DNA of 64,000 bases from Candidatus Omnitrophota bacterium (GCA_041663665.1 JBAYMG010000003.1:3991-67990), one strand, 5' to 3'; numbered from the stretch's first letter, positions 12,552-64,000 are shown. Program-made: numbers and translations. The notes: a model not told the origin generated them from the letters alone.

Positions 12552-12968
12552 ATGAAATCTCACACCGAATATCTCTATTTTAATACCACTCAAAGGCAGG
12601 AGTTTGTTAATATAACTAGCCAGGTGGAGAAGGCTCTGGCTAAAAGCGCAATCCAAGAGGGTTTGTGTTTAGTTAATCCTATGCATATTACCGCCAGCGT
12701 TTTTATCAATGATGATGAAACTGGTTTGCATCAGGATTTCTCTCTTTGGCTTGAAAAACTAGCTCCGTTTAGTAAAGATAGATATCAGCATAATTCTACC
12801 GGCGAAGATAACGCGGACGCGCATTTGAAGCGTACGATCATGGGTAGGGAAGTAGTAGTGGCAGTAACCGGAGGAAAGTTAGATTTCGGCCCATGGGAGC
12901 AGATTTTTTACGCTGAGTTTGATGGCCAACGCAAGAAACGGGTGCTGATTAAAATAATCGGGGAATAA
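12552..12968 (+). CDS. YjbQ/UPF0047 family protein (secondary thiamine-phosphate synthase-like)
   Basis: 138 aa; typical YjbQ length and fold sequence ([21 protein letters not shown]). Confidence 0.8.
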
Positions 12969-12970
12969 TT

Positions 12971-13906
12971 ATGAAAATAAAAAATACCGAAATTAAAGTG
13001 ATGCTGGGTGATATTACTGAGCAAGAAGTAGATGCTGTTGTTAATGCGGCTAATAATAAATTATTGATGGGTGGAGGTGTAGCTGGGGCGATTAAGAAAA
13101 AAGGCGGCCAGATTATTGAAGATGAAGCAATAAAAGATGGGCCTATTGAAATTGGGCAAGCGATTGCAACTGGTGCAGGTAAACTCAAAGCAAAATATGT
13201 GATCCATGCTGCAACTATGGGTATGGATTTTAAGACTGATGAAATTAAAATTCGTAATGCTTGCCGGAGCTCGTTGGATTTAGCCGGGAAATTAAAAATT
13301 AGTTCAATTATCTTTCCGGCTTTAGGTTGCGGTACCGGAGGATTTCCTTTGTTAGCTTCAGCTAAGATTATGGCTCAAGAGCTTTTAAAAGACTTGCGTC
13401 AGGAAAAGTCAGGGTTAAAAGAGGTAACCTTCTGTTTGAATAATCAGGAAGCAGTTGCTGTTTTTAACAAAGGTGTATTAGGCTATTTAGAGTATGTAAC
13501 CACAAAATTATCCGGCGGTCCGTATGTTACAGTGGATGCAATTATTGAATTATCGGAAGGAATCGTGATTATCGAGCGTAGTAATCCGCCTTTTGGCTGG
13601 GCACTGCCTGGAGGATTTGTAGATTATGGAGAAAGCTTGGAGGAAGCAGTAATTAGAGAGACAAAAGAAGAAACTAATTTGGATTTAACTGAAATTAAAC
13701 AGTTTCATACTTATTCTAACCCGCAGCGTGACTTGCGATTTCACACAATCGGAACTGTATTTATTGCCAAAGCTAAGGGTATTCCTAAGGCTGGTGATGA
13801 TGCAAAGGGCCTAAAAATTGTTAAATTAAGTGAGATAGAGAAGCTGCAACTTGCCTTTGATCATAAGAAAATTCTTCAGGATTACCTTCAGGCAAAACAG
13901 GCTTAA
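12971..13906 (+). CDS. Macro domain (ADP-ribose/O-acetyl-ADP-ribose binding) fused to a NUDIX hydrolase (ADP-ribose pyrophosphatase-like)
   Basis: N-terminus [29 protein letters not shown]...HAAT (macro domain). C-terminus Nudix box [24 protein letters not shown]. Confidence 0.8.
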
Positions 13907-15807
13907 CCTTCGCGTAATTGTTTTTCGGCGTCAACAATATCGCGGTTAATTACGCGGATGGTTTCTTTGATTTTATCTTTAAGTAAATAGGAAGCAACCG
14001 GGGCACCGGAGATTTCCCTTAAAACTTGCACGCTCATCCGAAAATACCGGACTACTTCACCTTCATCGCAATCCGTCAGTAATAATGTTTTATCAAAACT
14101 TGTCCCGCGTAGCCAGGCTTCCATAGCAGAACAGAGATGAAAATAGGGAAGCTTGCTAAAAGGATAAATTTTATAGCGTCTTTCCTTATCTTTTATCTGG
14201 TCATAGGTTTCTTCGCATGTTTTTTTAAGCCAGCGGCTGGATTTGGATATGCTTGATGGCATGCGTTGATTTTTGCGGGGGTCGAAGACAACAGAGGCCG
14301 CTACTACGCCTAATCCGAATTCATCTTGTTGTTCAAGGATGTTCTGTTCGTATAATTCCGAGAGGACTAATTCATAGCCATAAACAGTTTTAGCAAATTT
14401 TCCTTTGTTGGTAAGTTTTCCGTCAGAGATATAGTTTAAGTCTTTGAGTAGTTTAAGTTTTGCATCCAAGAGATTTAATGCATGTTTCTGTTCGTTTTTA
14501 CGTGATTGGTAATAATGTAAAGAAAGAGGATAAATTTTAAATAAATCCTCCTGATATTTTTCATAAAGATTAAGAATAGTGGCATAAGAAGTATTTAATT
14601 GGCTTTTTACTTCCTCAGGCTTGCCATAAATTATTCTGCGTACATCATCAAAGGTCATTCTTTGTGAGTTAACTCGCGTATAGACAAACCCTTCTTTGTC
14701 AATACCGCGCCTTCCGGCCCTGCCGGCCATTTGGAAAAAATCGCGGGTTTTTAAATTACGGACATAGGTACCGTAAAATTTACGCAGGCCGTCAAACATA
14801 ACCGAGCGGCTGGGCATATTGATCCCCAGGGCAAATGTTTCGGTGGTAAAAATTACTTTAAGCAAGCGGCTGGTAAAAAGCCGTTCGATTACTTCTTTTA
14901 ATGTGGGCAGCATCCCGGCGTGGTGATAGGCAATACCGCGTTGAATGAGGGGGTAAAGCATTTGGGCTGATTGTTCATTTTTTAAGTTAAATCTTTCCAG
15001 CAGATCTTCATACATCTGGGTAATTGCCCGGCTTTCTTTAGCGTCTAAGAATCTAAATCCATATAATTCCTGAGCAAGCTCTTCAGCGCGTTTACGGCTA
15101 AAAACAAAATAAATTGCTGGAAGCCCGTCATTATTACGCAAATAATCAATTAGCGAGCTTAATCTGTTAGGTTTATTTGAGCGGATGCGTTTAAGGTGCT
15201 CGATTTTATCGACGATTTCATTTTGGCACTGGAAAAGGAAATGCAAGGGGACCGGGCGGTTGTCTTCAATAACTACTTGGACGCTCTTATTATGGATTGA
15301 TTCGATCCAGGCGGCAAACTGCTTGATATTCGGGATCGTCGCTGACAGTCCAAGCAGCTTCATGTGTTTAGGGAGGAAAATCAGTGATTCTTCCCAGACT
15401 GTCCCGCGTTCAGGATTATCAATGTAATGAATTTCGTCAAAAATAACCCAGGTGTATTTATCCAGGCTTTGCGGTTCATCCAATATTTTATTACGTAGAA
15501 TTTCGGTAGTCATGATTAAAACCGGGGCTTGTGGGTTAATTGAAACATCACCGGTTAGGATGCCGATATTATCTTGAAATTGTCCTTGGAAGTCGCGGAA
15601 TTTTTGATTGGAGAGGGCTTTGATCGGTGCAGTATAGATAACTCCTAAATTATTAATAATCGCGTTGCTAATAATATATTCGGCAATAGCGGTTTTTCCA
15701 GCTCCGGTTGGCGCTGAAACAATTACTGAGTGCCCATTGTTTATATGGTCAATGGCTTCCTGCTGGAATCGATCGTAAATCATGAATCCATTATAATCTA
15801 AAATCAT
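13903..15807 (-). CDS. Ski2/HelY-like DEAD/DEAH-box superfamily-2 RNA helicase with a DSHCT-like C-terminal domain
   Basis: Q-motif FQQEAI, motif [10 protein letters not shown], motif II FDEIHY, SAT motif GLSAT. This is the only minus-strand CDS in the window. Start is uncertain (ATG at 15807, 15786 or 15843; track TTG at 15993 would overlap the divergent gene by 150 nt). Confidence 0.8.
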
Positions 15808-25792: not shown

Positions 25793-26515
25793 ATGTTAGA
25801 GATAAAAATAAGGCAGCTGGGGAATATTGTTATTTTAGATTTAAGCGGACGCATAGACGTAGATTCGGCTAATTTAGTGGAAGTAGCCGGCCAATGTGTG
25901 TCTAATGGTTACATAGATATTCTTTGTAATTTTGAAGATATTCAGACTATCGATTATATGGGTATTTCGGTAGTGGTTATTGCTTATAAAGAGGTGGTTA
26001 ACCATCTGGGTAGAATGAAATTTATCAATATTCCGGCACACCTTAAGAGTGCTTTAGTAGTTTCCGGCATAGACAAGGTTATTGAAACTTATGCTTCCGA
26101 AGATATAGCCTTAAATAGTTTTAAGGAAGATAAAATTATTGAGAAAATTAAGAAAATGCAGCTGCGCCGCAGGTTTAAGCGCTTGCCCATTGACCTAAAG
26201 GTAGAATTAAAATCTAAACAAGATAATTCTTTATCCTGTCCGGAACTTGACATGCTTAACTTAAGCGCTATCGGCGCTTATATATTCGGGTGTAATAAGT
26301 TTAAACTGGGGGATGAAGTATTGCTTAAGATGAAGCTTGCTCCGCAACAGGACCAGCTCTGTTTAGAGGCAATCGTAGTTTGGATACCGGATAGGGCTGT
26401 TCAACCGCATCAGTATCCGGGAATCGGGGTAGAGTTTGTTAATCTATCTATAGTCAACCAGCAGAAATTGATCGCATTTATTGAACGTAATCTTTCTTTT
26501 ATGTCTTCGGATTAA
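25793..26515 (+). CDS. STAS (anti-sigma-factor antagonist-like) domain fused to a C-terminal PilZ c-di-GMP-binding domain
   Basis: N-terminus IVILDLSGRIDVDSANLVE...KFINIPAHLKSALVVSGIDKV (STAS fold). C-terminus has RRRFKR (RxxxR) and NLSAIG (D/NxSxxG) PilZ motifs. Confidence 0.65.
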   Translation: MLEIKIRQLGNIVILDLSGRIDVDSANLVEVAGQCVSNGYIDILCNFEDIQTIDYMGISVVVIAYKEVVNHLGRMKFINIPAHLKSALVVSGIDKVIETYASEDIALNSFKEDKIIEKIKKMQLRRRFKRLPIDLKVELKSKQDNSLSCPELDMLNLSAIGAYIFGCNKFKLGDEVLLKMKLAPQQDQLCLEAIVVWIPDRAVQPHQYPGIGVEFVNLSIVNQQKLIAFIERNLSFMSSD

Positions 26516-45556: not shown

Positions 45557-47143
45557 ATGATTAAGGTTTTAGTTAGCGATGCGTTAAGCGAGGAAGGTCT
45601 AAAAATATTTAAAGATTGCAAGGAACTTTCCTTTGATGTAAAAACAGATTTGAAGCCTGAGGCTTTAAAAGAAATAATTAAAAATTATGATGCTTTGGTT
45701 GTGCGCAGTGCAACTAAAGTTACCAAGGATGTAATTGCTTCTGCTACGAAACTAAAAGTTATCGGCCGAGCTGGCGTGGGTTTGGATAATGTTGACTTGG
45801 AAGCTGCCACGCAAAAAGGGATTATTGTCATGAATACTCCGGCCGGAAATACTATTTCTACCGCCGAGCATACTTTTAGTATGATTCTGGCTTTATCCCG
45901 GAATATCGCTCAGGCAAATTCTTCGATGAAAAAAGGGGAGTGGAAGCGTTCTAAGTTTATGGGTGTTGAGTCATACAACAAAGTTTTAGGTATTGTCGGA
46001 TTCGGCCGGATTGGTTCAGAGGTGGCAAAACGCGCATTATCTTTTGGTATGCGGGTTTTAGCTTTTGATCCATTCTTATCCAAGCAGGTAGCTGAGGGAA
46101 TTGGGGTGGAAATTGCGGAGTTAAAAAAAGTTTTGCAAGAGGCTGACTATATTACAGTGCATACGCCTTTAACTGATGAGACTAGGCATATGATCTCAGA
46201 TAAAGAGTTTGGAATAATGAAAAAAGGCGTGCGGATTATCAATTGCGCCCGGGGTGGGATTATTGACGAATTGGCTTTAGTCAAAGCGCTTAAAGATGGC
46301 AAGGTGGCCGGTGCGGCTATGGACGTTTTTGAAAAAGAACCGCTGGCAGCCGATAGTGAACTTTTAAAGTTTGATAATGTAATTACAACTCCGCATTTAG
46401 GTGCTTCTACTGAAGAGGCGCAGGTTAATGTAGCAATTGAGGTTGCTGAGATTGTGCGTGATGCGCTCTTGGGGCGCGGAATTCGCAATGCTGCTAATTA
46501 TCCATGCTTAGATGCAGAAGTCTGCAAAATTCTTAATCCTTATATTAATTTAGGAGAGAAAATCGGAATGTTTGCCGGGCAGTTAGTCGAAGGCAGGTTT
46601 GCTGAGGTAACCATAAGCTATAGTGGGCAAATTACTAAATATAATTTAAGCCCGGTAACTATGGCTTTAGTTAAAGGCCTGCTTACTCCGATATTAAAAG
46701 AAACTGTTAATTTTGTTAATGGCGTTTCGCTGCTTAAGGAAAGAGGAATAAAACTTTTAGAATCAAAGTTTGCGCAGGAAGGCGAATTTGTTAACCTTAT
46801 TCAGTTAGATATTAAGACAGATAAGGAGACTAAATCGATTTTTGGCACGCTCTCTAGCAATAAACAGCCGCGAATTGTTAAGATTGATGATTATTATTTG
46901 GAATTGCATCCGGTTGGGCAAATGATTTTTATCCGTAATCTTGATAAGCCGGGGTTAATCGGTAATTTAGGAACCTTGATGGGTAAAAGCGGTATGAATA
47001 TTGCCGCTATGGCTTTAGGCCGTAATAAACCAGGTGATAAAGCCATTAGTGTCTGGAGTATCGATAATCAGGTAGGTCCGGAAATTCAGGAAAAAATAAG
47101 AAAATTGGATAATGTTTTGACGGTAAAAGTAATCAAAATATGA
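45557..47143 (+). CDS. serA: D-3-phosphoglycerate dehydrogenase (with ASB and ACT domains)
   Basis: NAD motif GIVGFGRIGSEVA, catalytic region, C-terminal ACT domain; 528 aa. Confidence 0.93.
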   Translation: MIKVLVSDALSEEGLKIFKDCKELSFDVKTDLKPEALKEIIKNYDALVVRSATKVTKDVIASATKLKVIGRAGVGLDNVDLEAATQKGIIVMNTPAGNTISTAEHTFSMILALSRNIAQANSSMKKGEWKRSKFMGVESYNKVLGIVGFGRIGSEVAKRALSFGMRVLAFDPFLSKQVAEGIGVEIAELKKVLQEADYITVHTPLTDETRHMISDKEFGIMKKGVRIINCARGGIIDELALVKALKDGKVAGAAMDVFEKEPLAADSELLKFDNVITTPHLGASTEEAQVNVAIEVAEIVRDALLGRGIRNAANYPCLDAEVCKILNPYINLGEKIGMFAGQLVEGRFAEVTISYSGQITKYNLSPVTMALVKGLLTPILKETVNFVNGVSLLKERGIKLLESKFAQEGEFVNLIQLDIKTDKETKSIFGTLSSNKQPRIVKIDDYYLELHPVGQMIFIRNLDKPGLIGNLGTLMGKSGMNIAAMALGRNKPGDKAISVWSIDNQVGPEIQEKIRKLDNVLTVKVIKI

Positions 47144-48867
47144 AAAATATTAGAAGCATATTGCTTGTTTTAGTTTTTTTATTTTTAATGAGTAATTTTT
47201 TGTACGCTAAAGATATCACTATTGTCTATAGCGGGCAGACCCACGCTATGCTTTATACTTGCAGCTGCCCTATTGAGCGGGACGGCGGGATTGCTCGTCG
47301 AGCTTCCTTGATAAAGGAATTAAGAAAAAGCGATCCAAATCTTTTACTTTTAGATTGCGGTAGCTTTTCTGCCGGTGGTTTACTGGATGAATATACTCAA
47401 AGTGCCAAGCTGGATATGCAGCGGACACTGGTTAATTTCAAGGCACTGGAGCTTATGCGTTATGATGCCGTAGGCATTAGCTCTGATGAGTTTAATTTCG
47501 GCAAAGAATTTTTTTTAAAAATTTCCCGGACCGCTAATCCTGCTTTCTTAAGCGCTAATCTAGAATCAAGGCAGGTTATTCCCTATGTAATTAAGGATCT
47601 AAAAGGTATCAAGGTTGGGTTAGTCGGTTTGACTGGTCTGGCTGTCAGCCAAAAATCAGAAGGCATAAAGATAAGCGAACCTAAAAAAATCTCGGAATTA
47701 ATCAGCCGTTTAAAACAAGAAGGGGCTCAAGTAATTGTTCTTTTGAGTACGCTGGGTGAGAAAGAAGACTTAAAGTTAATTTCTGAAGTTAAAGGTATTG
47801 ATATACTTTTTGTCGGGCAAAATCCCTTAAAAGATGAGCCACTGACTAAGGTGGATTCTACTTTTATCTTGCGTCCGTTATGGCAAGGGCGTAAAATTGG
47901 TAAATTAACTTTAAAAATTAAAGATGGCCAGCTTACCGATTGTAAAACTGAAGAAATAAAAGTCTCGGAGAGATTTACTGATGACCCTCAGATATTATCA
48001 ATTCTTCCGCGTTGTTATTCTGATGCTAATTGTAAGAAAGAAGGTTTTGCCGGTAATTGTGCAAATCCCGGTGATTTAAGTGCGCAGTGCGTATTTACCC
48101 GGCCAAACGAAATCAGCTTGCGTGTAATTACTGTAAAAGATTGCATTGTTTGTAATGAAGAGCCGGTAATTAATTTATTGAAAAAGAAATTTCCCGGGAT
48201 AGTTGTGAAATATCTTTATTACCCGGATCTTGCTGTACAGGAATTAATTAAGGGCCTGCCGGTAGAAAGCTTGCCCGTTTATTTATTGGGTCAAGAAATT
48301 GAGAAAGAAGATAATTTTTATAGTATAAAGGATGATTTTATATTGGTTAAAGACAGCTATTTGCTTAAGCCTCAACTAAGCGGTTTAGCTTATTTTTTCA
48401 AACGGAATAAAAATGAAGGAAGTCTGGATTTATTTTTTAGTATATTTGAAAAAGATGCGGATAAACTCTTAAGCGCTACCGAGGACCTTAAGCCTAATTT
48501 GCATTTTTTAATAGTTGAAGATGCGCAAGGTTTTACTGCTAAGCATGGTGCTTTAGAAGTGGAAGAGTGTCTGCGCGGGGCGTGTGTGCAGAAATACTAT
48601 CCCAAGGTATTCTGGAATTATTTAACCTGCCGATCTAAAAAAATCGATAGTTCTTATTGGGATGATTGCCTTAATGCAGCGCAATTGCCTGAGATTAGAA
48701 CTTGTGCTAGGGGGCCTGAGGGCATAAAATTGCTTAAAGAAAATATCAGTTTAAGTAAAGAGCTGCAAATTATGTTTGGCCCAACTTATCTTTTGAATAA
48801 TCAGGAGATTTTTTCTCTTCGGGATGTCCCGAAAAAAGAGGAACTTAAGAAAATAATTAAGAGGTGA
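47140..48867 (+). CDS. secreted multidomain protein: degenerate calcineurin-like/5'-nucleotidase-like domain + two thioredoxin-fold (DsbA-like) domains, one with a CIVC motif
   Basis: Signal peptide. The N-terminal half follows the metallophosphoesterase motif order but the metal ligands are substituted (GQTHAM, LLLDCGS, GISSDEFNFG, FVGQNP). The C-terminal half has KDCIVCNEEP (CxxC) and two cis-Pro-loop-like segments (SLPVYLLGQE, GPTYLLNNQE), and is Cys-rich. Confidence 0.45.
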   Translation: MKNIRSILLVLVFLFLMSNFLYAKDITIVYSGQTHAMLYTCSCPIERDGGIARRASLIKELRKSDPNLLLLDCGSFSAGGLLDEYTQSAKLDMQRTLVNFKALELMRYDAVGISSDEFNFGKEFFLKISRTANPAFLSANLESRQVIPYVIKDLKGIKVGLVGLTGLAVSQKSEGIKISEPKKISELISRLKQEGAQVIVLLSTLGEKEDLKLISEVKGIDILFVGQNPLKDEPLTKVDSTFILRPLWQGRKIGKLTLKIKDGQLTDCKTEEIKVSERFTDDPQILSILPRCYSDANCKKEGFAGNCANPGDLSAQCVFTRPNEISLRVITVKDCIVCNEEPVINLLKKKFPGIVVKYLYYPDLAVQELIKGLPVESLPVYLLGQEIEKEDNFYSIKDDFILVKDSYLLKPQLSGLAYFFKRNKNEGSLDLFFSIFEKDADKLLSATEDLKPNLHFLIVEDAQGFTAKHGALEVEECLRGACVQKYYPKVFWNYLTCRSKKIDSSYWDDCLNAAQLPEIRTCARGPEGIKLLKENISLSKELQIMFGPTYLLNNQEIFSLRDVPKKEELKKIIKR

Positions 48868-52164: not shown

Positions 52165-52545
52165 ATGTTTGAAAATTTAAAAAGTCGCGTTGTAATAGTC
52201 TTAGGGATATTGTTAGTATTATTTTTCTTTTCGACGCTTAGTTCATGTAATAGCGCTATGCGTCAGAAAACGGCTCGTGATAAAGAGATGGCTGCGCGCC
52301 TTGTTTTGGAAGAAAAAGTTAATAAGTTTTCCCAGGACCGGGCAGTTCTAGAAGAAAAAGCTAAAGCTAAAGAAAAAGAGGTATCGGAATTAAAAATTAC
52401 GCTTGAAAATGTAAATAAATCTTTGATCCAGGAGCAGATGGTTAATCAAAGTTTAAAAGATGAGCTGCAAAAGGTAGCTAAGCTTAAAGAAACCTTAGAA
52501 AATGATTCGAAGTCCAAGGACGATGGGAAAAAATTTAAAAAATGA
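52165..52545 (+). CDS. coiled-coil lipoprotein (hypothetical)
   Basis: Signal peptide ending in lipobox LSSC, then ~90 aa of a K/E-rich heptad-like coiled coil. Confidence 0.5.
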   Translation: MFENLKSRVVIVLGILLVLFFFSTLSSCNSAMRQKTARDKEMAARLVLEEKVNKFSQDRAVLEEKAKAKEKEVSELKITLENVNKSLIQEQMVNQSLKDELQKVAKLKETLENDSKSKDDGKKFKK

Positions 52546-52586: not shown

Positions 52587-52609
52587 AAGGGGAGAGAATC
52601 CCCTTTTTT
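52587..52609 (+). terminator. rho-independent terminator
   Basis: AAGGGGA-gagaa-TCCCCTT stem-loop followed by TTTTTA, 40 nt after the 52165..52545 stop. Confidence 0.6.
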
Positions 52610-55193: not shown

Positions 55194-55913
55194 ATGCAGA
55201 ATAATTCCAATATCCCCAAGCATGTGGCTTTCATTCTGGATGGTAACGGCCGTTGGGCAAAAGCCAGAGGCCTGAATCGTACTGCCGGGCATCGTAAGGG
55301 TGCGGATCGGGTAAAAGAAATTATTCGTGGTGCAGGTTCATTGGGTATTGAAATAGTAACGTTTTTTGCTTTCTCAACCGAGAATTGGTCTCGGCCAAAA
55401 ACCGAAGTAAATGTTTTGATGCGTTATTTAGATAGTTTCTTGAGCAAAGAAATTAAACACCTGCAAGAAAATAATGTGCGTTTTTTGTCAATTGGCCGTA
55501 CTTATCCGGTACCTAAGTATCTCCAAGCCAGGATAAAAAAAACAGAAGAGGAGACGGCAAGCAATACCGGTTTGCTGGTTGTTTTAGCTTTGAATTATGG
55601 GGGCCGGCAGGAGATCGTGGATGCGGCAAAGAAATTTGGTAAAGATGTGTTAGCGGGAAAAATCAATCCGGAAAATCTGGATGAGGAAAAATTCCGGGGT
55701 TATTTTTATGCTGCTAGTATTCCCGATCCGGATTTACTAATTCGCACCAGCAATCAAATGCGCATTAGTAACTTTTTGCTTTGGCAGCTTTCTTATTCCG
55801 AGTTTTATTTTTCGCATAAATATTGGCCGGATTTTGGTATGGATGAGTTAAAAGATGCTATTAAAGAATATCAGAGAAGGGAAAGAAGATTTGGAGGCAT
55901 AAATGTTAATTAA
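55194..55913 (+). CDS. uppS: isoprenyl transferase (undecaprenyl diphosphate synthase)
   Basis: HVAFILDGNGRWA...FSTENWSRP...RTSNQMRISNFLLWQLSYSE; 239 aa. Confidence 0.93.
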   Translation: MQNNSNIPKHVAFILDGNGRWAKARGLNRTAGHRKGADRVKEIIRGAGSLGIEIVTFFAFSTENWSRPKTEVNVLMRYLDSFLSKEIKHLQENNVRFLSIGRTYPVPKYLQARIKKTEEETASNTGLLVVLALNYGGRQEIVDAAKKFGKDVLAGKINPENLDEEKFRGYFYAASIPDPDLLIRTSNQMRISNFLLWQLSYSEFYFSHKYWPDFGMDELKDAIKEYQRRERRFGGINVN

Positions 55914-56691
55914 GAGGATAATCAGTTCTTTCATGCTTATTAGCATTATCTGCAGTGTAATCTTTTTTGATTGGTTATGCGGTTTAGTAGTTACTATTTT
56001 TATTATTGGAGGCTTGTATGAATACTTTCTGATGCTTGAAAAGAAAGGGATCAAAATTTATAAATATTTTGGTATTGGCATGGGGGCGGTCATTCCCTTA
56101 TCGATTATGCTTAGGTTCGAACCGACCAAAAATTGGGAGTTACTTTTTATTGTTTTGGCTTTATTTTTTCTTATCCTTATGCAATTTAAACGCAGGGATA
56201 ATTCCGGGGTAATTGTCGATATTTCAACTACTCTTTTTGGCATTCTTTATGTTTCCTGGTTTTTTAGTTTTCTTATAAAAATAAGGTATTTGCACGGTGG
56301 GCTAGGGTTTTTGGCCAGTTTGTTATTAATTACAAAATTGGGGGATATCGGTGCATTTTTAGTGGGTAGCCGATGGGGCAAGCATCTATTAATATCGCGA
56401 ATCAGCCCGAATAAAACAGTGGAAGGGGCCTTAGGAAGTTTAGTTTTTAGTATTTTCGGAGCGTTGGCCTGTAAATCGTTTTTGCCATTCAATAATGCCC
56501 AACTATTATTAATTGCAATTTGTTTGAATATTTTAGGCCAATTAGGAGATCTTTCAGAGTCTTTACTTAAGAGGGATTGTCAGGTTAAGGATTCAGGGAG
56601 GATATTTCCAGGTATGGGCGGAGTATTGGATGAAATTGACAGCTTATTGTTTACCGCCCCGGTATTTTATTTTATCTTAGCTCGATTATAA
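55903..56691 (+). CDS. cdsA: phosphatidate cytidylyltransferase
   Basis: Polytopic membrane protein with the CTP_transf_1 C-terminal signature SRISPNKTVEGALGS...GGVLDEIDSLLF. Confidence 0.85.
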   Translation: MLIKRIISSFMLISIICSVIFFDWLCGLVVTIFIIGGLYEYFLMLEKKGIKIYKYFGIGMGAVIPLSIMLRFEPTKNWELLFIVLALFFLILMQFKRRDNSGVIVDISTTLFGILYVSWFFSFLIKIRYLHGGLGFLASLLLITKLGDIGAFLVGSRWGKHLLISRISPNKTVEGALGSLVFSIFGALACKSFLPFNNAQLLLIAICLNILGQLGDLSESLLKRDCQVKDSGRIFPGMGGVLDEIDSLLFTAPVFYFILARL

Positions 56692-56693
56692 TT

Positions 56694-57839
56694 ATGAAGA
56701 AAATTGCGGTTTTAGGTTCAAGCGGTTCTATTGGCCAGAATACTCTGGCGGTTGTCAAGAGCTTAGCTGGAAAATTTAAGGTTGAGGCTTTAAGCGTTAA
56801 TTCCGATATTGTTAAATTAAAACAACAAATAGACGAATTCCATCCGCGTTTAGTATGCGTAAGAGATAAGCAGAGCGCTTATAAGTTAAAATCTGCCGTT
56901 GGTTCAAAAGTAAAAATTTTCTGTGGCGATGAAGGCTTGGCTGAGTTGGTTAAAGATAAGCAGATAGAACAAGTGATGCTTGCTATCTCCGGATCTGCTG
57001 CCCTTACGCCGTTGATTAGCGCAATTAAGGCAAGTAAAGACATCGCTTTAGCTAATAAAGAGGCAATAGTTATGGCTGGGCCGATAATTATGCGCTTAGC
57101 CGAAAAATATAAGGTTAAGATATTACCGGTTGACAGCGAGCAATCAGCTATCTGGCAGTGCTTAGGCGGATCCAGCCAAGATAATGTCAGGCGGGTATAT
57201 TTGACTGCTTCCGGAGGCTCGTTGAGAGACTTGCCGAGAAACAAGTTTAAGCAGGTAACTATAGAAAAAGTATTGCAACATCCACGCTGGAAGATGGGCA
57301 GGAAGATTACGGTAGATTCAGCGACTTTAATGAACAAGGGGCTTGAACTGCTCGAGGCAATGTTTTTATTTAATTTGAGAGTAGAGAAAATAAGCGTATT
57401 GATTCATCCGGAGGCTTTTATTCATTCGATGGTTGAATTTAATGATGGGGTGATTATGGCCCAGCTTTCAATTACAGATATGCGTATACCTATTCAGTAT
57501 GCCTTATCATATCCGGAACGTCTGTCTAGTCCGCTTTCCGGGATTGATTTTTATCGTTTGAGTAAGCTGCATTTTGCCAAACCGGACTTAAAAAAATTTC
57601 CTTGTTTAGGGCTTGCTTATCAGGCGGCTAGAGATTTAGGAACCATGCCGGCGGTATTAAATGCAGCTAATGAAGAAAGCGTTAATCATTTTTTAAATAA
57701 GCGAATTAATTTTTTAACCATACCAAAAATAGTGGATAAGGTAATGCGGCGCCATATAAAAAGTGCTAATCCTAGCTTTAAAGATATACTTTCTGCTGAT
57801 GCTTGGGCCAGAGAGGAAGTTGCGCGCTTTGCGTATTAA
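56694..57839 (+). CDS. dxr: 1-deoxy-D-xylulose 5-phosphate reductoisomerase
   Basis: MKKIAVLGSSGSIGQNTLAVV NADPH motif; full-length Dxr, 381 aa. Confidence 0.95.
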   Translation: MKKIAVLGSSGSIGQNTLAVVKSLAGKFKVEALSVNSDIVKLKQQIDEFHPRLVCVRDKQSAYKLKSAVGSKVKIFCGDEGLAELVKDKQIEQVMLAISGSAALTPLISAIKASKDIALANKEAIVMAGPIIMRLAEKYKVKILPVDSEQSAIWQCLGGSSQDNVRRVYLTASGGSLRDLPRNKFKQVTIEKVLQHPRWKMGRKITVDSATLMNKGLELLEAMFLFNLRVEKISVLIHPEAFIHSMVEFNDGVIMAQLSITDMRIPIQYALSYPERLSSPLSGIDFYRLSKLHFAKPDLKKFPCLGLAYQAARDLGTMPAVLNAANEESVNHFLNKRINFLTIPKIVDKVMRRHIKSANPSFKDILSADAWAREEVARFAY

Positions 57840-57851
57840 CCTTAATTAAAG

Positions 57852-58934
57852 ATGATCCCGATAATTATTTTCATTTTAATTTTAAGCTTACTTATTATCG
57901 TACACGAATTTGGCCATTTTATTGCTGCGCGTAAAAATGGCGTACGGGTAGAGCAATTTTCATTAGGTTTTGGGCCGCAGATTTTTAAGAAAAAATTTGG
58001 TGATACTGAATTTAGTATAAGCCTTATTCCTTTAGGCGGCTATGTTAAGATGTCCGGGGACAGTCAATCAGATTATAAAGGATTAGATTATGAGTATTTT
58101 TCAAAATCACCCGGGAAAAGATTCCAGATTATTTTTTTGGGCCCGTTTTTAAATTATCTTCTGGGGTTTTTATTTTTCTGGTTTATTCTTTTTATCGGTT
58201 ATCCCAGCCTGACCACCAAAGTCGGAGGATTAATTGATGGCTATGGCGCTCAAGAAGCCGGCCTTAAGGTTGGCGATAAGATTATCTCAGTTGGCGGTAA
58301 GCAAGTTTATTTCTGGGATGATCTCCAGAGCAGGATACAGGAAAGTAAATCTAATCCCAGCGTAGGAGTCAGTGTTTTGCGCAATAATCAAGAATTAAAA
58401 TTTAATGTCTTGCTTAAAAATAAAGTTTTTGATGATCAGTCGGGTAAAAAACGTGCTTTAGGAATTATTGGGATTTCTCCTTTTGACGAAATAGTTGAAG
58501 TAAAACATGGTTTTTTTGAATCGGCGTATTTGGGCATGCAAAAAACTATTAATTTAACTGTTATAACTTATCAGGGTTTATGGGGTTTGATCAGCGGAAA
58601 GATGTCAATGCGTGAATCTATGACCGGGCCGTTAGGGATATTCTTTATTACATCTAAGGCGGCAAAATTAGGATTAATCGCAGTAATGCACTTGATTGCA
58701 GTATTAAGCGTAAGTTTAGCAATTTTTAATCTTTTGCCGTTTCCGATTTTAGATGGCGGGCATTTATTTTTATTGGGGCTAGAGAAATTAAGAAAAAAAG
58801 CGTTGGGGGTTAAAACGGAAGAGGTAATTGGTAACATTGGTTTTACGCTTTTAATTAGCCTGACAATATTTGTTACTTATAATGATATCTTGCGGCTTTA
58901 TGGAGATAAGATCAGTAAATTAATTACTAAATAA
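57852..58934 (+). CDS. rseP: RIP metalloprotease RseP (site-2 protease, M50)
   Basis: HEFGHFIAAR (HExxH), PDZ segment, NLLPFPILDGGH (LDG motif); 360 aa. Confidence 0.9.
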   Translation: MIPIIIFILILSLLIIVHEFGHFIAARKNGVRVEQFSLGFGPQIFKKKFGDTEFSISLIPLGGYVKMSGDSQSDYKGLDYEYFSKSPGKRFQIIFLGPFLNYLLGFLFFWFILFIGYPSLTTKVGGLIDGYGAQEAGLKVGDKIISVGGKQVYFWDDLQSRIQESKSNPSVGVSVLRNNQELKFNVLLKNKVFDDQSGKKRALGIIGISPFDEIVEVKHGFFESAYLGMQKTINLTVITYQGLWGLISGKMSMRESMTGPLGIFFITSKAAKLGLIAVMHLIAVLSVSLAIFNLLPFPILDGGHLFLLGLEKLRKKALGVKTEEVIGNIGFTLLISLTIFVTYNDILRLYGDKISKLITK

Positions 58935-58935
58935 T

Positions 58936-60009
58936 ATGGAAATCAAGCGAAGAAAATCCCGGGTAGTTAAAATTGGCAAGGTTTTAATCGGTGCAGGAAA
59001 TCCGGTTGCTGTTCAATCGATGGCCAAAACAAAGACTTCCGATATTGATGGTACGGTCGAGCAAATTAAACGTTTGGAATTAGCCGGTTGCCAAATAATT
59101 CGCTTGGCGATTAAGGATCAGTCGGATGCTGAAGCCTTAAAACAGATTAAGCCTCAAGTGGCAATTCCTTTGGTTGCGGATATTCATTTCTCTTACCGTT
59201 TAGCAATTACTGCGATTGAAAATGGGGTTGATAAAATTAGGTTAAATCCGGGTAATATTGATAATCTTAAGCAGATTGAGATGGTTGTCTGTGCGTTAAA
59301 GGCCGCTAAGATTCCTTTGCGTATCGGCCTTAACAGTGGTTCGGTCAAAGATACCGGTCCGAGGAAATCATTAATGACTGATAAGCTAGTCTCTGCCTGC
59401 CTGGGTTATGTTAAAATGATTGAGAAATTGAAGTTTAATAATTTGGTAATTTCGCTTAAGGCCAACAATGTTTTGGATACAATCGAAAGTTACCGCAAGA
59501 TAGCCAGGCTTTGTGATTATCCTTTGCATTTAGGAGTTACTGCTACAGGTGCTCCTTACGGCGGCATCATTAAGTCTAGTGTCGCAATCGGTGCTTTACT
59601 ACTAGAGGGTATTGGTGATACAATAAGGGTATCGCTTACGGATGATCCGGTTGAAGAGGTAAAAGCAGCCAAATGTATTTTGGAATCTTTGGGCCTGCGG
59701 AATCGGGGCATTCAGATAATCAGTTGCCCTACTTGCGGCCGTTGTGAAGTAAACTTGATTAATATAGTTAAAGAGTTAGAAGATAAAATAGCCGTACAAG
59801 AACATAAAAGGACAGCGTATCCTTTAAAAGTAGCAGTTATGGGTTGTGTAGTTAATGGCCCGGGGGAAGCCAAAGAAGCAGATTTGGGAATTGCTTTTGG
59901 TAGAGACCAGGGGATATTATTTTCAAAAGGAAAGATAGTTAGAAAAGTATTGGCTAAAGATTGTGTGCGTGTTTTATTGCGGGAGCTTAAATTAAACACC
60001 TCGCGTTGA
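58936..60009 (+). CDS. ispG: 4-hydroxy-3-methylbut-2-enyl diphosphate synthase (GcpE)
   Basis: Full-length IspG with C-terminal 4Fe-4S Cys ligands (CPTCGRC ... GCVVNGPGE); 357 aa. Confidence 0.95.
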   Translation: MEIKRRKSRVVKIGKVLIGAGNPVAVQSMAKTKTSDIDGTVEQIKRLELAGCQIIRLAIKDQSDAEALKQIKPQVAIPLVADIHFSYRLAITAIENGVDKIRLNPGNIDNLKQIEMVVCALKAAKIPLRIGLNSGSVKDTGPRKSLMTDKLVSACLGYVKMIEKLKFNNLVISLKANNVLDTIESYRKIARLCDYPLHLGVTATGAPYGGIIKSSVAIGALLLEGIGDTIRVSLTDDPVEEVKAAKCILESLGLRNRGIQIISCPTCGRCEVNLINIVKELEDKIAVQEHKRTAYPLKVAVMGCVVNGPGEAKEADLGIAFGRDQGILFSKGKIVRKVLAKDCVRVLLRELKLNTSR

Positions 60010-60066
60010 TATCTAACCGTAGTTAATAAGTGTTTTTCGGTGTGCCTTTATAGGCAAGGAGGCAGG

Positions 60067-61326
60067 ATGCAGCATACATTAAAAAATAGGGTGCGTGAAG
60101 ATTTTATTGCGAAATACAGTTATATTTTGCAAAAAAGTTCCGGAGACAAAGTCGAGGTGGCAACGGTAGTTAGAAATATCCTGGAGGGGATTTTAAGCCA
60201 GCCGCGAGGCTCGCTCAAAGATCAGGATCGGACAAATATTATTAACGAACTGGTTGATGAATTCTCAGGGTTTGGGCCGATTGAGAGATTAATGATGGAC
60301 CCGGATATTACTGAAATTATGATTAATGGTACACAGAATGTATATATAGAAAAACAAGGGAAGAAGCAGCTAACGGATATTAAGTTTGATAGTGATCAGC
60401 AATTGATGTATATCATTCAAAAAATTTTAGCGCCAACCAGAAGGAGGGTTGATGAAGTAGTTCCCTATACGGATGTTTGCCTTCCGGATGGTTCGCGTGT
60501 GAATATTATTATCCCTCCCTTAGCTTTAGACGGGCCGACAATAACTATTCGCAAATTCCTTAAAAAAATTGTCAAAGCTGAACATCTTATTGAATTAGGG
60601 ACTCTGGATAGAAGAATGGCGGATTTTTTGATAGCCTGTATTAAGGGCAAGATTAATATTATATTCGCTGGTGCTACGGGAAGCGGAAAAACTACTACTG
60701 TTGGAGTATTCTCCAGCTATATTGATAATGACGAACGTACCATTACTATCGAAGATACAGCTGAGCTGCATTTAGCTCAAGATCATGTTGTCAGGCTCGA
60801 GACAAAGCCTTCTAATATTGAAGGAAAGGGCGAGATTACTATCCGGGATATTTTTCGTAATACCTTGCGTATGCGCCCGCAGAGAATTATTTTAGGTGAA
60901 ATTAGAAGTGCTGAAGCTTTGGATATGCTTCAGGCAATGTGCTCAGGGCATAATGGGGCTCTTTCAGTTATTCATGCTAACACTCCTCAAGAAGTTTTGT
61001 ACCGTTTGGAGACAATGATTCTTATGTCCGGGGTACCGATAACTTTGGAGGCAATACATCGTCAGATTGCTGAAAGCTTGCATTTAATTATTCAGCAAGA
61101 TCAACTTGCTGACGGGACGCGTAAAATTACACGTATTACCCAGGTTCATGGATTAAAAAACGGCTGGGTGAATTTGGAAGATATTTTTTTCTACGAGATT
61201 AGCAATGTTGTTGAGGGCGGGAAGGTTTATGGCCGTTTCAAAGCTACAGGAATAGAGCCGGCATTTTATCCTCTTTTTGTTAAACGAGGAGTAAACTTGC
61301 CCAAAGAAATTTTTAAAAAGGATTAG
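60067..61326 (+). CDS. CpaF/TadA-like secretion ATPase (T2SSE family), paralog 1
   Basis: Walker A GATGSGKTT, Asp box ITIEDTAEL, His box, Walker B RIILGEIR. ATG 60067 with AAGGAGG 5 nt upstream (track start GTG 60040). Confidence 0.85.
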   Translation: MQHTLKNRVREDFIAKYSYILQKSSGDKVEVATVVRNILEGILSQPRGSLKDQDRTNIINELVDEFSGFGPIERLMMDPDITEIMINGTQNVYIEKQGKKQLTDIKFDSDQQLMYIIQKILAPTRRRVDEVVPYTDVCLPDGSRVNIIIPPLALDGPTITIRKFLKKIVKAEHLIELGTLDRRMADFLIACIKGKINIIFAGATGSGKTTTVGVFSSYIDNDERTITIEDTAELHLAQDHVVRLETKPSNIEGKGEITIRDIFRNTLRMRPQRIILGEIRSAEALDMLQAMCSGHNGALSVIHANTPQEVLYRLETMILMSGVPITLEAIHRQIAESLHLIIQQDQLADGTRKITRITQVHGLKNGWVNLEDIFFYEISNVVEGGKVYGRFKATGIEPAFYPLFVKRGVNLPKEIFKKD

Positions 61327-61327
61327 T

Positions 61328-62572
61328 ATGTTTTGGTCAAAAGTTTTTATTCCGACGTTAAAAGAAACACCTAAAGAGGCAGAGTCAATAAGCCATCAAT
61401 TGTTGCTGCGTGCAGGTTTTGTGCGGATGCTGATGGCTGGAGCTTATACTTATCTTCCTTTAGGTTTGCGAGTTTTAGAAAAAATTCAGGAAATAATCCG
61501 CCAGGAGATGAATGCTTGCGGGGCCAGTGAATTGCTGCTGCCGGCTTTACATCCGCTTGAGCTTTGGCAGAAAACGGGCCGGGATAATGATTTAGGCGAA
61601 GTAATGTTGAAACTTAAAGATCGTCGCGGGAGATCTATCTGCCTGGGTCCGACGCATGAAGAAGTAATTACGGATTTAGTAAAAAATAATATTTCTAGTT
61701 ACCGGCAGTTGCCTCTGGTTTTATACCAAATCCAGACAAAATTCCGCGATGAGATGCGGCCGCGTTTTGGATTAATCCGTGCGTGCGAATTTATTATGAA
61801 GGACGCTTACAGTTTTGACCAGGATGAGGTAGGTTTAGATAAAAATTATCAGTTAATGTTTGAGGCCTATAAGCGGATATTTGCCAGGTGTGGTTTAGAG
61901 GTTTTAATTACTGAAGCAGATTCTGGTGTTATGGGGGGAAAAGTTTCCCATGAGTTTATGGCCGCAGCTGCACTTGGTGAAGATATAGTTTTGCGTTGTC
62001 CGAAATGTAAGTCGGCCAAGGCTTTTAAAGAGAATAATAATTCTTGCCCTAAATGCCAGGCAGAGATGGAGAAAGTTAATACTATTGAAGTCGGGCATAT
62101 ATTTAAACTCGGTTTAAAATATAGCCAGGCAATGCAGGCAAATTTTTCTGATATTTCAGGCCAGCTTAAGCCGGTAGTTATGGGTTGTTATGGAATCGGC
62201 GTATCGCGCTTGATTTCTACAATTATTGAACAAAATAATGACGCTAATGGAATTATTTGGCCGAAAGAAGTTGCTCCTTTTCAAATTATGATTTTACCTT
62301 TGGATGTGACTAATTCCAGGGTGATGGAGGAGTCAATGTATCTTTACCGGCAGATCAATAATGCTGGTTTTTCAGTGCTTTTGGATGATCGCGATGAGCG
62401 GGCTGGCGTAAAATTCAAGGATGCTGAGCTCATTGGCATACCTTTGAGTATTGTTGTTGGTAAAAAAAATATTGAAGAAAATAATATAGAATTGAGAATC
62501 CGCAAGGATAAAGTAACTAAGCTTGTACCCAAAGAAGAATTAATCGAATTTGTTACCAAATTTAGTTCATAA
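61328..62572 (+). CDS. proS: prolyl-tRNA synthetase, bacterial-type catalytic core without an INS editing domain, with a Cys4 ribbon insert
   Basis: N-terminus FIPTLKETPKEAESISHQLLLRAGF, class II motifs, C-terminal anticodon-binding domain. 414 aa. Insert LRCPKCKSAKAF...CPKCQAEM sits where INS normally is. Confidence 0.82.
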   Translation: MFWSKVFIPTLKETPKEAESISHQLLLRAGFVRMLMAGAYTYLPLGLRVLEKIQEIIRQEMNACGASELLLPALHPLELWQKTGRDNDLGEVMLKLKDRRGRSICLGPTHEEVITDLVKNNISSYRQLPLVLYQIQTKFRDEMRPRFGLIRACEFIMKDAYSFDQDEVGLDKNYQLMFEAYKRIFARCGLEVLITEADSGVMGGKVSHEFMAAAALGEDIVLRCPKCKSAKAFKENNNSCPKCQAEMEKVNTIEVGHIFKLGLKYSQAMQANFSDISGQLKPVVMGCYGIGVSRLISTIIEQNNDANGIIWPKEVAPFQIMILPLDVTNSRVMEESMYLYRQINNAGFSVLLDDRDERAGVKFKDAELIGIPLSIVVGKKNIEENNIELRIRKDKVTKLVPKEELIEFVTKFSS

Positions 62573-62585
62573 ATATTGAAAATAA

Positions 62586-63821
62586 ATGGCTATGGATAAT
62601 CATTTACAAACTGCTAAAGATGACATTATAAGGAAGCTTGCTTTGCGCGAAGATGAGTTTAAGTCCAGCCTCGCTCAAGGCGATCGTCTTGGTTTTCAGC
62701 GCATGATCGAAGCTGCTTTTAGGTCTGTGGTTAGAGAAAACAGGATTTCTTTTAATCGGGAAGAGCAGGATGAAGTTTTAAGTGAAGTCATAACTTATTT
62801 TATAGGATTTGGCCCAATTGAGATTTTACTTAAAGATCCGGATGTTACTGAAATCATGATCAACGGGCCAAGCCAAGTGTACGTTGAGCGTAAAGGGAAT
62901 TTAGAATTAACGGATATCACTTTTGAAAATGAAGCTCAGGTTGCGCATATTATTGAAAAGATAATTTCGCCTATGGGTAGAAGGATTTCTGAGTTTGAGC
63001 CTTTTGTTGATGCTAGGCTTAAGGATGGTTCGCGGGTTAATATTGTCAGGTCTCCGGTCTCCAGGATTGGCCCGGTTCTGACTATTAGAAAATTTTCTTA
63101 CCGTGTTTTACGTGCCGAGGATCTTATTAAGCTTGGAAGCCTTACTTCTTTAGCTGCGCAATTTCTCAAAGCTTGTGTAATAGCTAGGATAAATATAATA
63201 ATAGCCGGAGGTGCCGGAACAGGCAAGACTACTCTTTTGAATGCTTTGATCGATTTTATTCCGGAGAATGAAAGGCTGATTACTATTGAAGATACCCGGG
63301 AGTTAATTGTTTCAAGGAAACATGTCGTTCCAATGGAGACCAGGCCTTTTAATATCGAAGGCAAGGGTGAGATTAGTATAAGAGATTTATTTAAGAATGC
63401 TTTACATATGCGTCCGGATAGAGTCATTGCCGGTGAAGTCAGGGGGGATGAAGTATTAGATATGATCCAGGCGATGAATTCCGGCCATGAAGGTTCAATG
63501 ACTACTTTGCATGCCAGTTCGCCGGTAGAGGCTCTAGATCGCCTTGAGATTTTAACTTTAATGGGCAGCAGTAATAATATATCAAGTGAAGTAGCCCGGA
63601 GGCAGATTGTTGGTGCAGTGGATATGGTTGTTTACTTAACTAGATTTCCGGACGGTTCAAGAAGAGTTACTCAAATTAGTGAAGTGGCGAAATCCAAAGA
63701 ATATTCTGTGCAGGATATTTTTGTTTATGATGATAATTCTAAAGCCCTTAAAGCTACAAATATTAAGCCTCACTTTGCTAATAAGCTAAAGAAGTCAGCT
63801 AATTATGTAATGCAAGATTAG
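62586..63821 (+). CDS. CpaF/TadA-like secretion ATPase (T2SSE family), paralog 2
   Basis: Walker A GGAGTGKTT, ITIEDTREL, RVIAGEVRG. Clearly paralogous to 60067..61326 (e.g. FGPIE(R/I)L..DPD(I/V)TEIMING...DGSRVNI...TIRKF). Confidence 0.85.
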   Translation: MAMDNHLQTAKDDIIRKLALREDEFKSSLAQGDRLGFQRMIEAAFRSVVRENRISFNREEQDEVLSEVITYFIGFGPIEILLKDPDVTEIMINGPSQVYVERKGNLELTDITFENEAQVAHIIEKIISPMGRRISEFEPFVDARLKDGSRVNIVRSPVSRIGPVLTIRKFSYRVLRAEDLIKLGSLTSLAAQFLKACVIARINIIIAGGAGTGKTTLLNALIDFIPENERLITIEDTRELIVSRKHVVPMETRPFNIEGKGEISIRDLFKNALHMRPDRVIAGEVRGDEVLDMIQAMNSGHEGSMTTLHASSPVEALDRLEILTLMGSSNNISSEVARRQIVGAVDMVVYLTRFPDGSRRVTQISEVAKSKEYSVQDIFVYDDNSKALKATNIKPHFANKLKKSANYVMQD

Positions 63822-63836
63822 AACAGAGGAACGGTT

Positions 63837-64000
63837 TTGGATAAAGAAGAGTTAGTGTTTAAGCTAAATGAGTTGATCAATGCCTGCCTTATTGATAATG
63901 GTAGTGAGTTGATTGATTTAATTTGCAGGTTTGAAGGTAAAAATTTAATTATTAAGATTTTTGCGGATAAGCTGGAAGGCAAGATAACTTTAGGAGAATG
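63837..64000 (+). CDS. rimP: ribosome maturation factor RimP, 5' end (truncated by the window)
   Basis: TTG 63837 with AGAGGA 6 nt upstream. (M)DKEELVFKLNELINACLIDNGSELIDLICRFEGKNLIIKIFADK matches the RimP N-domain pattern (xxLVDVEF.REGG...LRIFIDK). Confidence 0.55.
   Translation, partial: MDKEELVFKLNELINACLIDNGSELIDLICRFEGKNLIIKIFADKLEGKITLGE

Follow-up and report, generated by a model that had tools for sequence, protein, structure and literature searches.

A 64,000-nucleotide stretch of a Candidatus Omnitrophota metagenome-assembled genome (MAG; GCA_041663665.1, JBAYMG010000003.1:3991-67990), referred to here as the window, encodes two ATPases of the CpaF/TadA family, A1 and A2, on either side of proS, the gene for prolyl-tRNA synthetase. 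From sequence and genomic context we infer, with a probability of about 0.5, that A1 and A2 serve as independent accessory motors, constitutively expressed, for a dispersed machine resembling the tight adherence (Tad) pilus system. Each would form a separate homohexameric motor, and both would act in trans on a dispersed Tad-like pilus or secretion apparatus, their constitutive expression coming from riding an operon of translation genes. A2 would be a motor of the extension-only type and A1 would keep two of three retraction-face features, and labour would be divided among motors rather than lying with one bifunctional motor.

Two CpaF-family ATPases in a conserved block

Database records call both A1 and A2 'CpaF family protein [Candidatus Omnitrophota bacterium]', and the closest solved protein to either is Caulobacter CpaF (8rkd), at 352 bits for A1 and 319 bits for A2. 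The next-best solved relatives were archaeal GspE/FlaI (~130-144 bits) and VirB11 (91-117 bits). In neighbour-joining trees of 254-407 columns, rooted on GspE of A. fulgidus and FlaI of S. acidocaldarius, a CpaF-like clade of A1, A2 and the CpaFs of other phyla was separated from archaeal GspE, FlaI and a FlaI-like ATPase of Omnitrophota with 97-99% bootstrap support. VirB11, PilB, PilT and GspE were compared with A1 and A2 outside the tree, through model scores. A first-pass annotation of the sequence had described both proteins as CpaF/TadA-like and proposed a phylogeny against these families. The description was borne out by PF00437, by the closest solved relative and by the position in the CpaF clade; the tree delivered the separation from archaeal GspE and FlaI, with the remaining families placed by score.

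None of the NCBIfam models reached its curated cut-off for A1 or A2. The best model for both was TIGR03819, 'TadA family conjugal transfer-associated ATPase' (276.9 bits for A1 and 302.7 for A2, under the 373.15-bit cut-off). This is resemblance and not membership, as the scores are below the cut-off and the helicase/secretion neighbourhood that defines the family is absent from A1 and A2. Scores for A1 and A2 also stayed below the cut-offs for VirB11 (TIGR02788; 198 and 224 bits, cut-off 249.95), TrbB (TIGR02782; 177 and 201 bits, cut-off 304.55) and FlaI (NF058587; 183 and 194 bits, cut-off 550), and the pilT, pilB and gspE models gave 22-54 bits. Among the precomputed domain matches, PF27713 (UCP018868) matches A2, most A2 orthologues and some FlaI-like ATPases, with one match among the A1 orthologues listed; a literature search for PF27713/UCP018868 found nothing.

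The likeness to Caulobacter crescentus CpaF (family of Aggregatibacter TadA; PDB 8rkd, 8rjf, 9e24) holds in sequence, phylogeny, full-length predicted fold and motifs, and also in size, ~410-420 amino acids (aa) once the Caulobacter N-terminal extension is excluded. AlphaFold2 models built from shallow alignments had moderate confidence (predicted local distance difference test, pLDDT, 68.8 for A2 and 64.0 for A1). With that confidence, both showed the CpaF fold of an N-terminal helical bundle, an N2 domain and a C-terminal ATPase domain. The top Foldseek matches to these models were 8rjf, 9e24 and 8rkd (E-values 7.5e-34 for A2 and 1.9e-35 for A1, over ~410-427 aligned columns). As first annotated, both proteins have an intact Walker A, Asp box, Walker B glutamate and His box. 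Across A1 (25 sequences), A2 (33) and CpaFs from tad operons (17), 72 positions are invariant, all motifs included; of 143 positions conserved among the tad-operon CpaFs, A1 keeps 105 and A2 keeps 97. By these sequence criteria A1 and A2 are catalytically intact members of the CpaF/TadA family and, because both keep the full catalytic motifs, neither is a degenerate partner subunit.

The two ATPases had been taken for clear paralogues with long identical stretches. Their homology stands, at 44% identity over 378 aa (E-value 6e-115), but no identical run exceeds 8 residues (NIEGKGEI); the genes share 63% DNA identity over 684 nt. A1 orthologues formed a clade with 100% bootstrap support, and A2 orthologues, together with all A2-like genes recovered elsewhere in Omnitrophota, formed a second group (83%, 407-column analysis). 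The mean distance between A1 and A2 was 0.81, versus 0.70 (A1) and 0.73 (A2) to the canonical CpaFs of other phyla. Support for A1 and A2 as sisters was 0.3-18%, and A1 grouped with canonical CpaFs at 52%. A recent or Omnitrophota-specific tandem duplication was therefore rejected on the low sister support and on an A1-A2 distance larger than that to the CpaFs of other phyla. Judged by these trees and distances, A1 and A2 are ancient paralogues that separated long ago.

For the distribution of the pair, GTDB species representatives were scanned with an A2 profile, after which open reading frames (ORFs) and synteny were mapped; the loci are numbered with the prefix L. The order uppS-cdsA-dxr-rseP-ispG-A1-proS-A2-rimP-nusA-infB-trpS-scpA-ruvB was found in 27 loci, the window counted, with A1 identities of 51-90% and A2 identities of 48-80%. 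Median gaps were -4, 27, 6 and 3 nt. As the arrangement recurs in 27 loci, it is no accident of one genome, and the first-pass description of orphan ATPases among translation genes is supported. The closest relatives of the source MAG are Velamenicoccia of the order Gygaellales, family Profunditerraquicolaceae. The loci nearest to the window are L009-L011; L011 and L020 belong to this same family, L033 and L038 to the Velamenicoccaceae and L037 to a Velamenicoccus species (supplementary table of Seymour et al.).

In a concatenated tree of housekeeping proteins with 3,218 columns there were four deep lineages, three of which had the two-ATPase block. Blocks with a single ATPase also occur. A2-only blocks (ispG-proS-A2-rimP) were found in L026, L028 and L043, which are not monophyletic. 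A1-only blocks (ispG-A1-proS-rimP) were found in L118, L119 and L120, which are 63-76% identical to A1 and fall at three separate places within or beside the window's clade. The latter came from an A1-seeded search, in which three matches were examined for context and all three were without A2. An earlier impression that A1 never occurs without A2 was accordingly discarded as an ascertainment bias of the A2-seeded scan. The major groups of the two-ATPase block match the housekeeping tree. On this comparative evidence the block was already present in the ancestor of a class-level clade, and one or the other ATPase has since dropped out of it several times independently.

Relatives of A2 also occur away from proS. 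An A2 orthologue in L008 adjoins a FlaI-like ATPase and dnaX-recR, and A2-like genes lie between sugar-phosphate isomerase-like and Memo-like genes in L019, after a type IV pilin gene in L044, near radA, aroB and lptD in L071, and after a very large ORF in L064 and L072. Given these solitary genes and the A2-only and A1-only blocks, either ATPase can exist at the proS site alone. The large ORF in L072 (140-6247) is at least 2,035 aa long, is cut by the contig end, has no Pfam match and overlaps the start of a 398-aa A2-like ATPase; L064 likewise has a large ORF (43-2397) before its A2-like ATPase. These two loci may tie A2-like ATPases to the giant genes of Omnitrophota.

A Tad-like locus in related Omnitrophota and the C-terminal face of A1 and A2

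The first-pass annotation had noted the absence of other Tad, type II secretion or type IV pilus components from the window, and this extends to its flanks. Precomputed Pfam matches for all genes of the window, of the ~2 kb preceding it and of the 10 kb following it included neither T2SSF, Flp or secretin nor RcpC/CpaB, TadE or prepilin peptidase; the other contents are housekeeping, lipopolysaccharide/core-oligosaccharide and nucleotide-metabolism genes. A motif scan for Flp prepilins gave 0 matches in the window and its extension versus 2-5 per real Tad-like locus. Operationally, a tad ATPase has been defined as one whose gene is co-oriented with two T2SSF platform genes, tadB and tadC (Ellison et al.). 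PF00482 (T2SSF) had no match in the window or flanks, so that A1 and A2 fall outside this definition there. The only gene of the window loosely tied to pilus regulation encodes a STAS+PilZ protein, a putative cyclic di-GMP (c-di-GMP) receptor (25793-26515).

As a control, outgroup CpaFs recovered by the A2-profile scan were found in textbook operons of RcpC, secretin, TadZ, CpaF, TadB and TadC (Pfam-verified in L083 and L057). A profile hidden Markov model (HMM) built from these operons detected TadB/TadC pairs in 16 of 41 outgroup loci and in 0 of ~47 Omnitrophota loci, and the canonical loci L111, L112, L113, L115 and L117 all had a T2SSF neighbour. Such HMM-based T2SSF negatives carry less weight than the window's Pfam negatives. 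Matches of a TadZ HMM to A1 were discarded as an artefact, the model having taken in CpaF sequence from over-extended or fused ORFs.

A scan of metagenomes of the Joint Genome Institute (JGI) with the RcpC of L090 yielded a conserved Tad-like locus of Omnitrophota, present in L091, L093, L094, L100 and L102. Its order is a Rotamase_2 peptidyl-prolyl isomerase (PPIase), RcpC, a secretin, a ~727-aa TadZ::CpaF fusion, a DUF192 gene, a ~290-aa ORF, ~8-10 small Flp-type genes with 'KGQS-xxEYA' leaders and, last, a weak TadE-like gene. The locus matches the secretion locus upstream of giant genes described in the searched text of West-Roberts et al. (bioRxiv 10.1101/2023.11.21.568195), with its Rotamase_2 PPIase, rcpC and gspD-type secretin and its many small genes with class III signal peptides. 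The L091 secretin (10915-12588), which has orthologues in L093, L094, L100 and L102, carries a C-terminal TonB_C domain (PF03544, E-value 7e-15), an unusual fusion.

The locus thus has an ATPase of its own, a ParA/MinD-type TadZ domain joined to a CpaF ATPase that is 46-49% identical to A1. This fusion ATPase is a separate lineage, at a distance of 0.56-0.59 from canonical CpaFs, 0.71 from A1 and 0.74 from A2. When it was added to the tree, a group of fusion, A1 and canonical CpaFs excluding A2 received 74% support; the deep branching order of A2, A1, the fusion and canonical CpaFs is suggestive on these data. Like A1, the fusion has G441 and a 24-aa C-terminal hairpin and is without R387; it differs from A1 and A2 in its TadZ domain and in its place between RcpC/secretin and the Flp prepilin array. 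No T2SSF was detected by HMM within 6-8 kb after the fusion, where the same HMM gives TadB/TadC at E-values of 1e-67 to 1e-80 in the canonical loci L111-L117. Since the fusion lies in the locus and TadB/TadC are not adjacent, the Omnitrophota apparatus is dispersed, with a core locus that has its own CpaF.

Links between A2-like ATPases and pilus genes come from three loci. In L051, a TadZ::CpaF fusion, whose ORF forms a clade with the fusions of the Tad-like locus (100% support), is directly followed by an A2-like ATPase and then by a PIN-domain gene. In L044 the A2-like gene follows a pilin gene, and in L008 the A2 orthologue is next to the FlaI-like ATPase found adjoining the Tad-like locus in other loci. 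L044 was rejected as a complete pilus operon, as the pilin and ATPase genes are followed by two ORFs of no assigned family, mscL, an asmA-like gene and a GGDEF gene. L051 (JAIWAR010000030.1) is filed under a 'Methanosarcinales archaeon' MAG yet is bacterial in content (mnmE, folC, purH, ychF, folE). It is an Omnitrophota-like contig binned with a Methanosarcinales genome, which is intriguing given that Velamenicoccus archaeovorus attacks Methanosaeta, but may reflect no more than a binning error.

The best model for the L008 partner ATPase is FlaI (223 bits, below the cut-off). It belongs to a highly conserved FlaI-like family of Omnitrophota (68-82% identity among the top 120 matches), with members at L008:11270-12619, L089:10001-11335, L090:10001-11347, L091:819-2165 and L102:7459-8802. 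The gene lies directly upstream of dnaX-recR in L008 and L089, and in L090 it is a few kb from a PPIase-RcpC-secretin cluster. Elsewhere it is divergent from the Tad-like locus, heading a run of FIST, histidine kinase and response-regulator-GGDEF genes, and it abuts the locus in L090-L102.

The searched text of Seymour et al. (PMC10066038) reports TadB/TadC/RcpA in 74 of 116 Velamenicoccia species and describes the Tad locus of V. archaeovorus as complete and expressed; L037, with its A1-proS-A2 arrangement, belongs to this genus. The components analysed there were TadB, TadC, RcpA, Flp and TadZ, not the ATPase, and neither that text nor the searched text of bioRxiv 10.1101/2023.11.21.568195 mentions CpaF, TadA or proS.

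Tad pili are held to be driven in both extension and retraction by a single bifunctional CpaF, which distinguishes them from other type IV filaments (bioRxiv 10.1101/616128; PMC12019362; PMC11300603). In a 2026 preprint the dual action is attributed to inversion of the CpaF ring on its platform, and extension-only CpaFs are reported to have lost features of the C-terminal face (Whitfield et al., bioRxiv 10.64898/2026.02.24.707734). The criteria given there for dual orientation are the N-terminus of helix alpha11 (P386, R387), the beta13-beta14 turn and the C-terminal motif. Among tad-operon CpaFs (n = 17), P386, R/K387 and G441 are each present in 16 of 17, and the hairpin has 24 residues. A1 (n = 25) keeps P386 and G441 in 24 of 25 and the 24-residue hairpin, with position 387 mostly Q, S or L (R in 3/25). 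In A2 (n = 33), P386 is found in 13/33, position 387 is L in 24/33 and otherwise Y, never R/K, and G441 is replaced by K in all 33. One or two residues (443-444) are deleted in about half of the A2 sequences, and the hairpin is shortened to a median of 19 residues, or 16 in off-block copies, versus 24; the predicted C-terminal strands are likewise shorter in A2 than in A1.

By these criteria A2 lacks all three features and A1 keeps two of three. Relative to Caulobacter CpaF, R387 is conserved in neither protein, and A2 is also without G441 and has the shorter hairpin. As all three C-terminal-face features are lost, A2 is predicted to resemble an extension-only motor, with A1 nearer to the canonical CpaF. 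The beta13-beta14 turn altered in A2 superposes on the AIRNLIRE retraction motif of PilT (bioRxiv 10.64898/2026.02.24.707734). In the type IVa system, PilB, PilT and PilU, each dedicated to extension or retraction, are likewise several diverged paralogues of one motor family per organism, and the division of labour proposed here would be analogous. PilB and PilT nevertheless belong to a different subfamily (22-54 bits), and their specialisation is experimental where that of A1 and A2 is sequence-inferred.

Outside Omnitrophota, CpaF-like ORFs of ~600-750 aa in Chloroflexota have an in-frame C-terminal Ribonuc_L-PSP (RidA) domain (L059:9404-11668, L041:9728-11629 and ~24 similar loci among L045-L087). 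No T2SSF was detected by HMM at ~24 Chloroflexota CpaF loci, nor by Pfam on the two ORFs downstream in L059. These genes may be a second orphan family, or the T2SSF HMM may be insensitive there. In L059, a gene for an aminoacyl-tRNA editing domain (PF04073) lies ~2 kb upstream.

Gene layout of the window

The window corresponds to the reverse complement of a 106-kb metagenome contig in ENA, and the features surrounding A1 and A2 are listed in Table 1. The gene order first annotated, with A1 and A2 flanking proS and rimP following, was found unchanged, and downstream of rimP the contig continues with nusA, infB, trpS, scpA and ruvB.

Table 1. Features of the window from the upstream terminator-like hairpin to rimP (nucleotides counted from the first base of the window; residue numbers for protein motifs)
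Feature	Position	Strand	Details
Terminator-like hairpin and T-run	52587..52605	+	AAGGGGAGAGAATCCCCTT then TTTTATT
uppS (Prenyltransf)	55194..55913	+	First gene of the conserved block; PF01255; syntenic in 20+ loci
cdsA	55903..56691	+	PF01148; synteny
dxr	56694..57839	+	PF02670, PF08436, PF13288; synteny
rseP (M50 site-2 protease)	57852..58934	+	PF02163 plus PDZ; synteny
ispG (gcpE)	58936..60009	+	PF04551; synteny
Shine-Dalgarno sequence AAGGAGG	60056..60062	+	4 nt before the A1 ATG; sequence read directly
A1, CpaF/TadA-family ATPase	60067..61326	+	419 aa; PF00437 T2SSE, E-value 3e-56
A1 motifs	residues 202, 226, 294		Walker A GATGSGKTT (202); Asp box ITIEDTAE (226); Walker B region RIILGEIR; His box GHNGALSVIHA (294)
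proS, bacterial-type prolyl-tRNA synthetase	61328..62572	+	414 aa; NF006625, 600 bits
A2, CpaF/TadA-family ATPase	62586..63821	+	411 aa; PF00437 T2SSE, E-value 9e-51
A2 motifs	residues 208, 232, 300		Walker A GGAGTGKTT (208); Asp box ITIEDTRE (232); Walker B region RVIAGEVR; His box GHEGSMTTLHA (300)
rimP, 5' part	63837..64000	+	PF02576; L001:11252-11716; continues past the window end

The start of A1 was placed at the ATG at 60067 rather than the GTG at 60040 because of the Shine-Dalgarno sequence, and the public gene call (419 aa) agrees. Gaps in the window are 57 nt from ispG to A1, 1 nt from A1 to proS, which begins 1 nt past the A1 stop, 13 nt from proS to A2 and 15 nt from A2 to rimP, and no terminator-like sites were found in the intergenic gaps from ispG through rimP. 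With gaps of 1-57 nt and no terminator, A1 and A2 probably share a transcript with the surrounding housekeeping genes. The hairpin in Table 1 is the sole convincing intrinsic terminator upstream of the housekeeping block, and the preceding transcription unit may end there. A promoter scan was uninformative (29 matches versus 34 expected).

ProS is without the INS editing domain, and its matches to NF006625 and TIGR00409 are each split in two around the missing insertion. At residues ~224-245, a short CxxC...CxxC zinc-ribbon-like insert (CPKCKSAKAFKENNNSCPKCQ) with weak matches to zinc-ribbon models replaces INS. The window showed no gene for trans-editing of the YbaK/ProX type.

The window (1-64000) has an extreme strand bias: of ~60 genes called, all but one are on the + strand, the exception being a DEAD/DSHCT helicase at ~13903-15783. 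All 2-kb bins have a positive GC skew (0.08-0.29). Two ORFs have no Pfam match on record, at 47140-48867 (575 aa) and 52165-52545 (126 aa); the latter comes after an OmpA-family gene.

Alternative explanations and implications

Because the Tad-like locus of relatives has its own CpaF as well as a FlaI-like ATPase, A1 and A2 are probably extra motors and not displaced sole copies. The opposing explanation is that A1, A2 or both are the cpaF of a Tad locus elsewhere in the genome that has no ATPase of its own, and that the position beside proS is meaningless. It draws on the dispersal of Omnitrophota pilus genes, with TadB/TadC not adjacent even to the core Tad-like locus, and on the typical CpaF size and motifs of both proteins. 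However, the RcpC-secretin locus in five related metagenomic loci has its own CpaF fused to TadZ, the fusion is a lineage separate from A1 and A2, and two ancient paralogues kept at one site across a class-level clade exceed what random displacement would give; we consider displacement unlikely. A tad locus lacking its own ATPase, which the first-pass annotation had named as the observation that would make these genes simply displaced cpaF copies, was not seen in the related Omnitrophota examined. The same annotation had suggested a hetero-hexamer, an obligate mixed ring of A1 and A2 driving an unrecognised machine. The two genes do lie together in a tightly packed operon in 27 loci, both proteins are catalytically competent as judged from their motifs, and their differences on the C-terminal face are complementary. 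Yet the A2-only (three) and A1-only (three) blocks make an obligate heterohexamer unlikely, as do the solitary A2-like genes (L008, L019, L044, L071); the losses are phylogenetically independent, both proteins have full catalytic motifs, and solved CpaF rings are homohexameric (PDB 8rkd, 9e24). The suggestion therefore fared poorly, and we regard it as very improbable.

Recruitment of one or both ATPases to cytoplasmic work in translation, RNA or DNA handling is another way to read their position. The archaeal PilT-like ATPase PINA acts on Holliday junctions, a precedent for a non-pilus role. The deeply conserved placement among proS, rimP, nusA, infB, ruvB and scpA is consistent with such a role, as are other CpaF- or FlaI-like orphans beside dnaX-recR, beside a PIN ribonuclease or, in Chloroflexota, fused to RidA/L-PSP near a YbaK-type editing gene. 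Weak matches to PINA NCBIfam models (28-30 bits) and Foldseek matches to the archaeal Holliday-junction helicase 5f4h point to a superfamily capable of such roles, but this similarity is generic to the fold. In addition, operon neighbours are weak functional evidence in compact genomes coded on one strand, A1 and A2 sit firmly inside the CpaF clade and retain most positions conserved in tad-operon CpaFs, and the neighbourhoods in L051, L044 and L008 tie A2-like ATPases to Tad or pilus genes. Recruitment away from the pilus is thus distinctly unlikely.

Several points weigh against accessory motors for a dispersed Tad-like machine. The tie of A1 and A2 to any pilus is indirect, and the neighbourhood ties in L051, L044 and L008 are single cases. 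By our own HMM, no T2SSF was seen beside any Omnitrophota CpaF-like gene examined, and the platform for A1 and A2 was not located. The Tad-like locus is known from metagenomic loci of relatives, not from the window's own genome; the tetranucleotide correlation (r) of L091-L102 is 0.84-0.87, versus 0.92-0.97 for family-level relatives, which places them among similar low-GC Omnitrophota. Some Profunditerraquicolaceae are without Tad complexes according to the searched text of PMC10066038. The C-terminal-face criteria come from a preprint resting on Caulobacter mutants and AlphaFold3 models (bioRxiv 10.64898/2026.02.24.707734), and A1 too is without R387, the position at which the retraction phenotype is strongest. 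The neighbour-joining trees have deep nodes at 52-74%, and the structural models are of moderate confidence (pLDDT 64-69).

Taken further, accessory motors would be part of a multi-motor Tad-type machine in Omnitrophota, comprising a locus-resident TadZ::CpaF, up to two trans-encoded paralogues (A1, A2) in a translation-gene operon and a FlaI-like ATPase. Its division among motors, by extension and retraction or by pilin, would have evolved independently, A2 would have given up the retraction face, and the rule of one bifunctional motor that now defines Tad pili would not hold here; we see this fuller version as doubtful. In Caulobacter, cpaF lies in the tad operon directly before two T2SSF genes and encodes a single bifunctional motor (bioRxiv 10.1101/616128; PMC12019362), whereas A1 and A2 are two paralogues without an adjacent Tad gene, and relatives have a third CpaF in their Tad-like locus. 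The CpaF literature searched treats Tad systems as single-motor, and the pair flanking proS may depart from that picture. A1/A2-type ATPases lie apart from other Tad genes, so they will be missed or miscounted by annotation pipelines and by locus models in the style of TXSScan.

Omnitrophota are described in the searched text of PMC10066038 as ultra-small and probably predatory or parasitic, with Tad-like machinery thought to mediate host attachment. Motors wired into an essential housekeeping operon would imply an apparatus that is always powered. A phylum with up to three ancient CpaF lineages and a FlaI-like ATPase is a natural experiment on the single-motor model, of greater interest if a multi-motor Tad machine is confirmed. 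If the paralogues divide the work, this would parallel the evolution of PilB and PilT.

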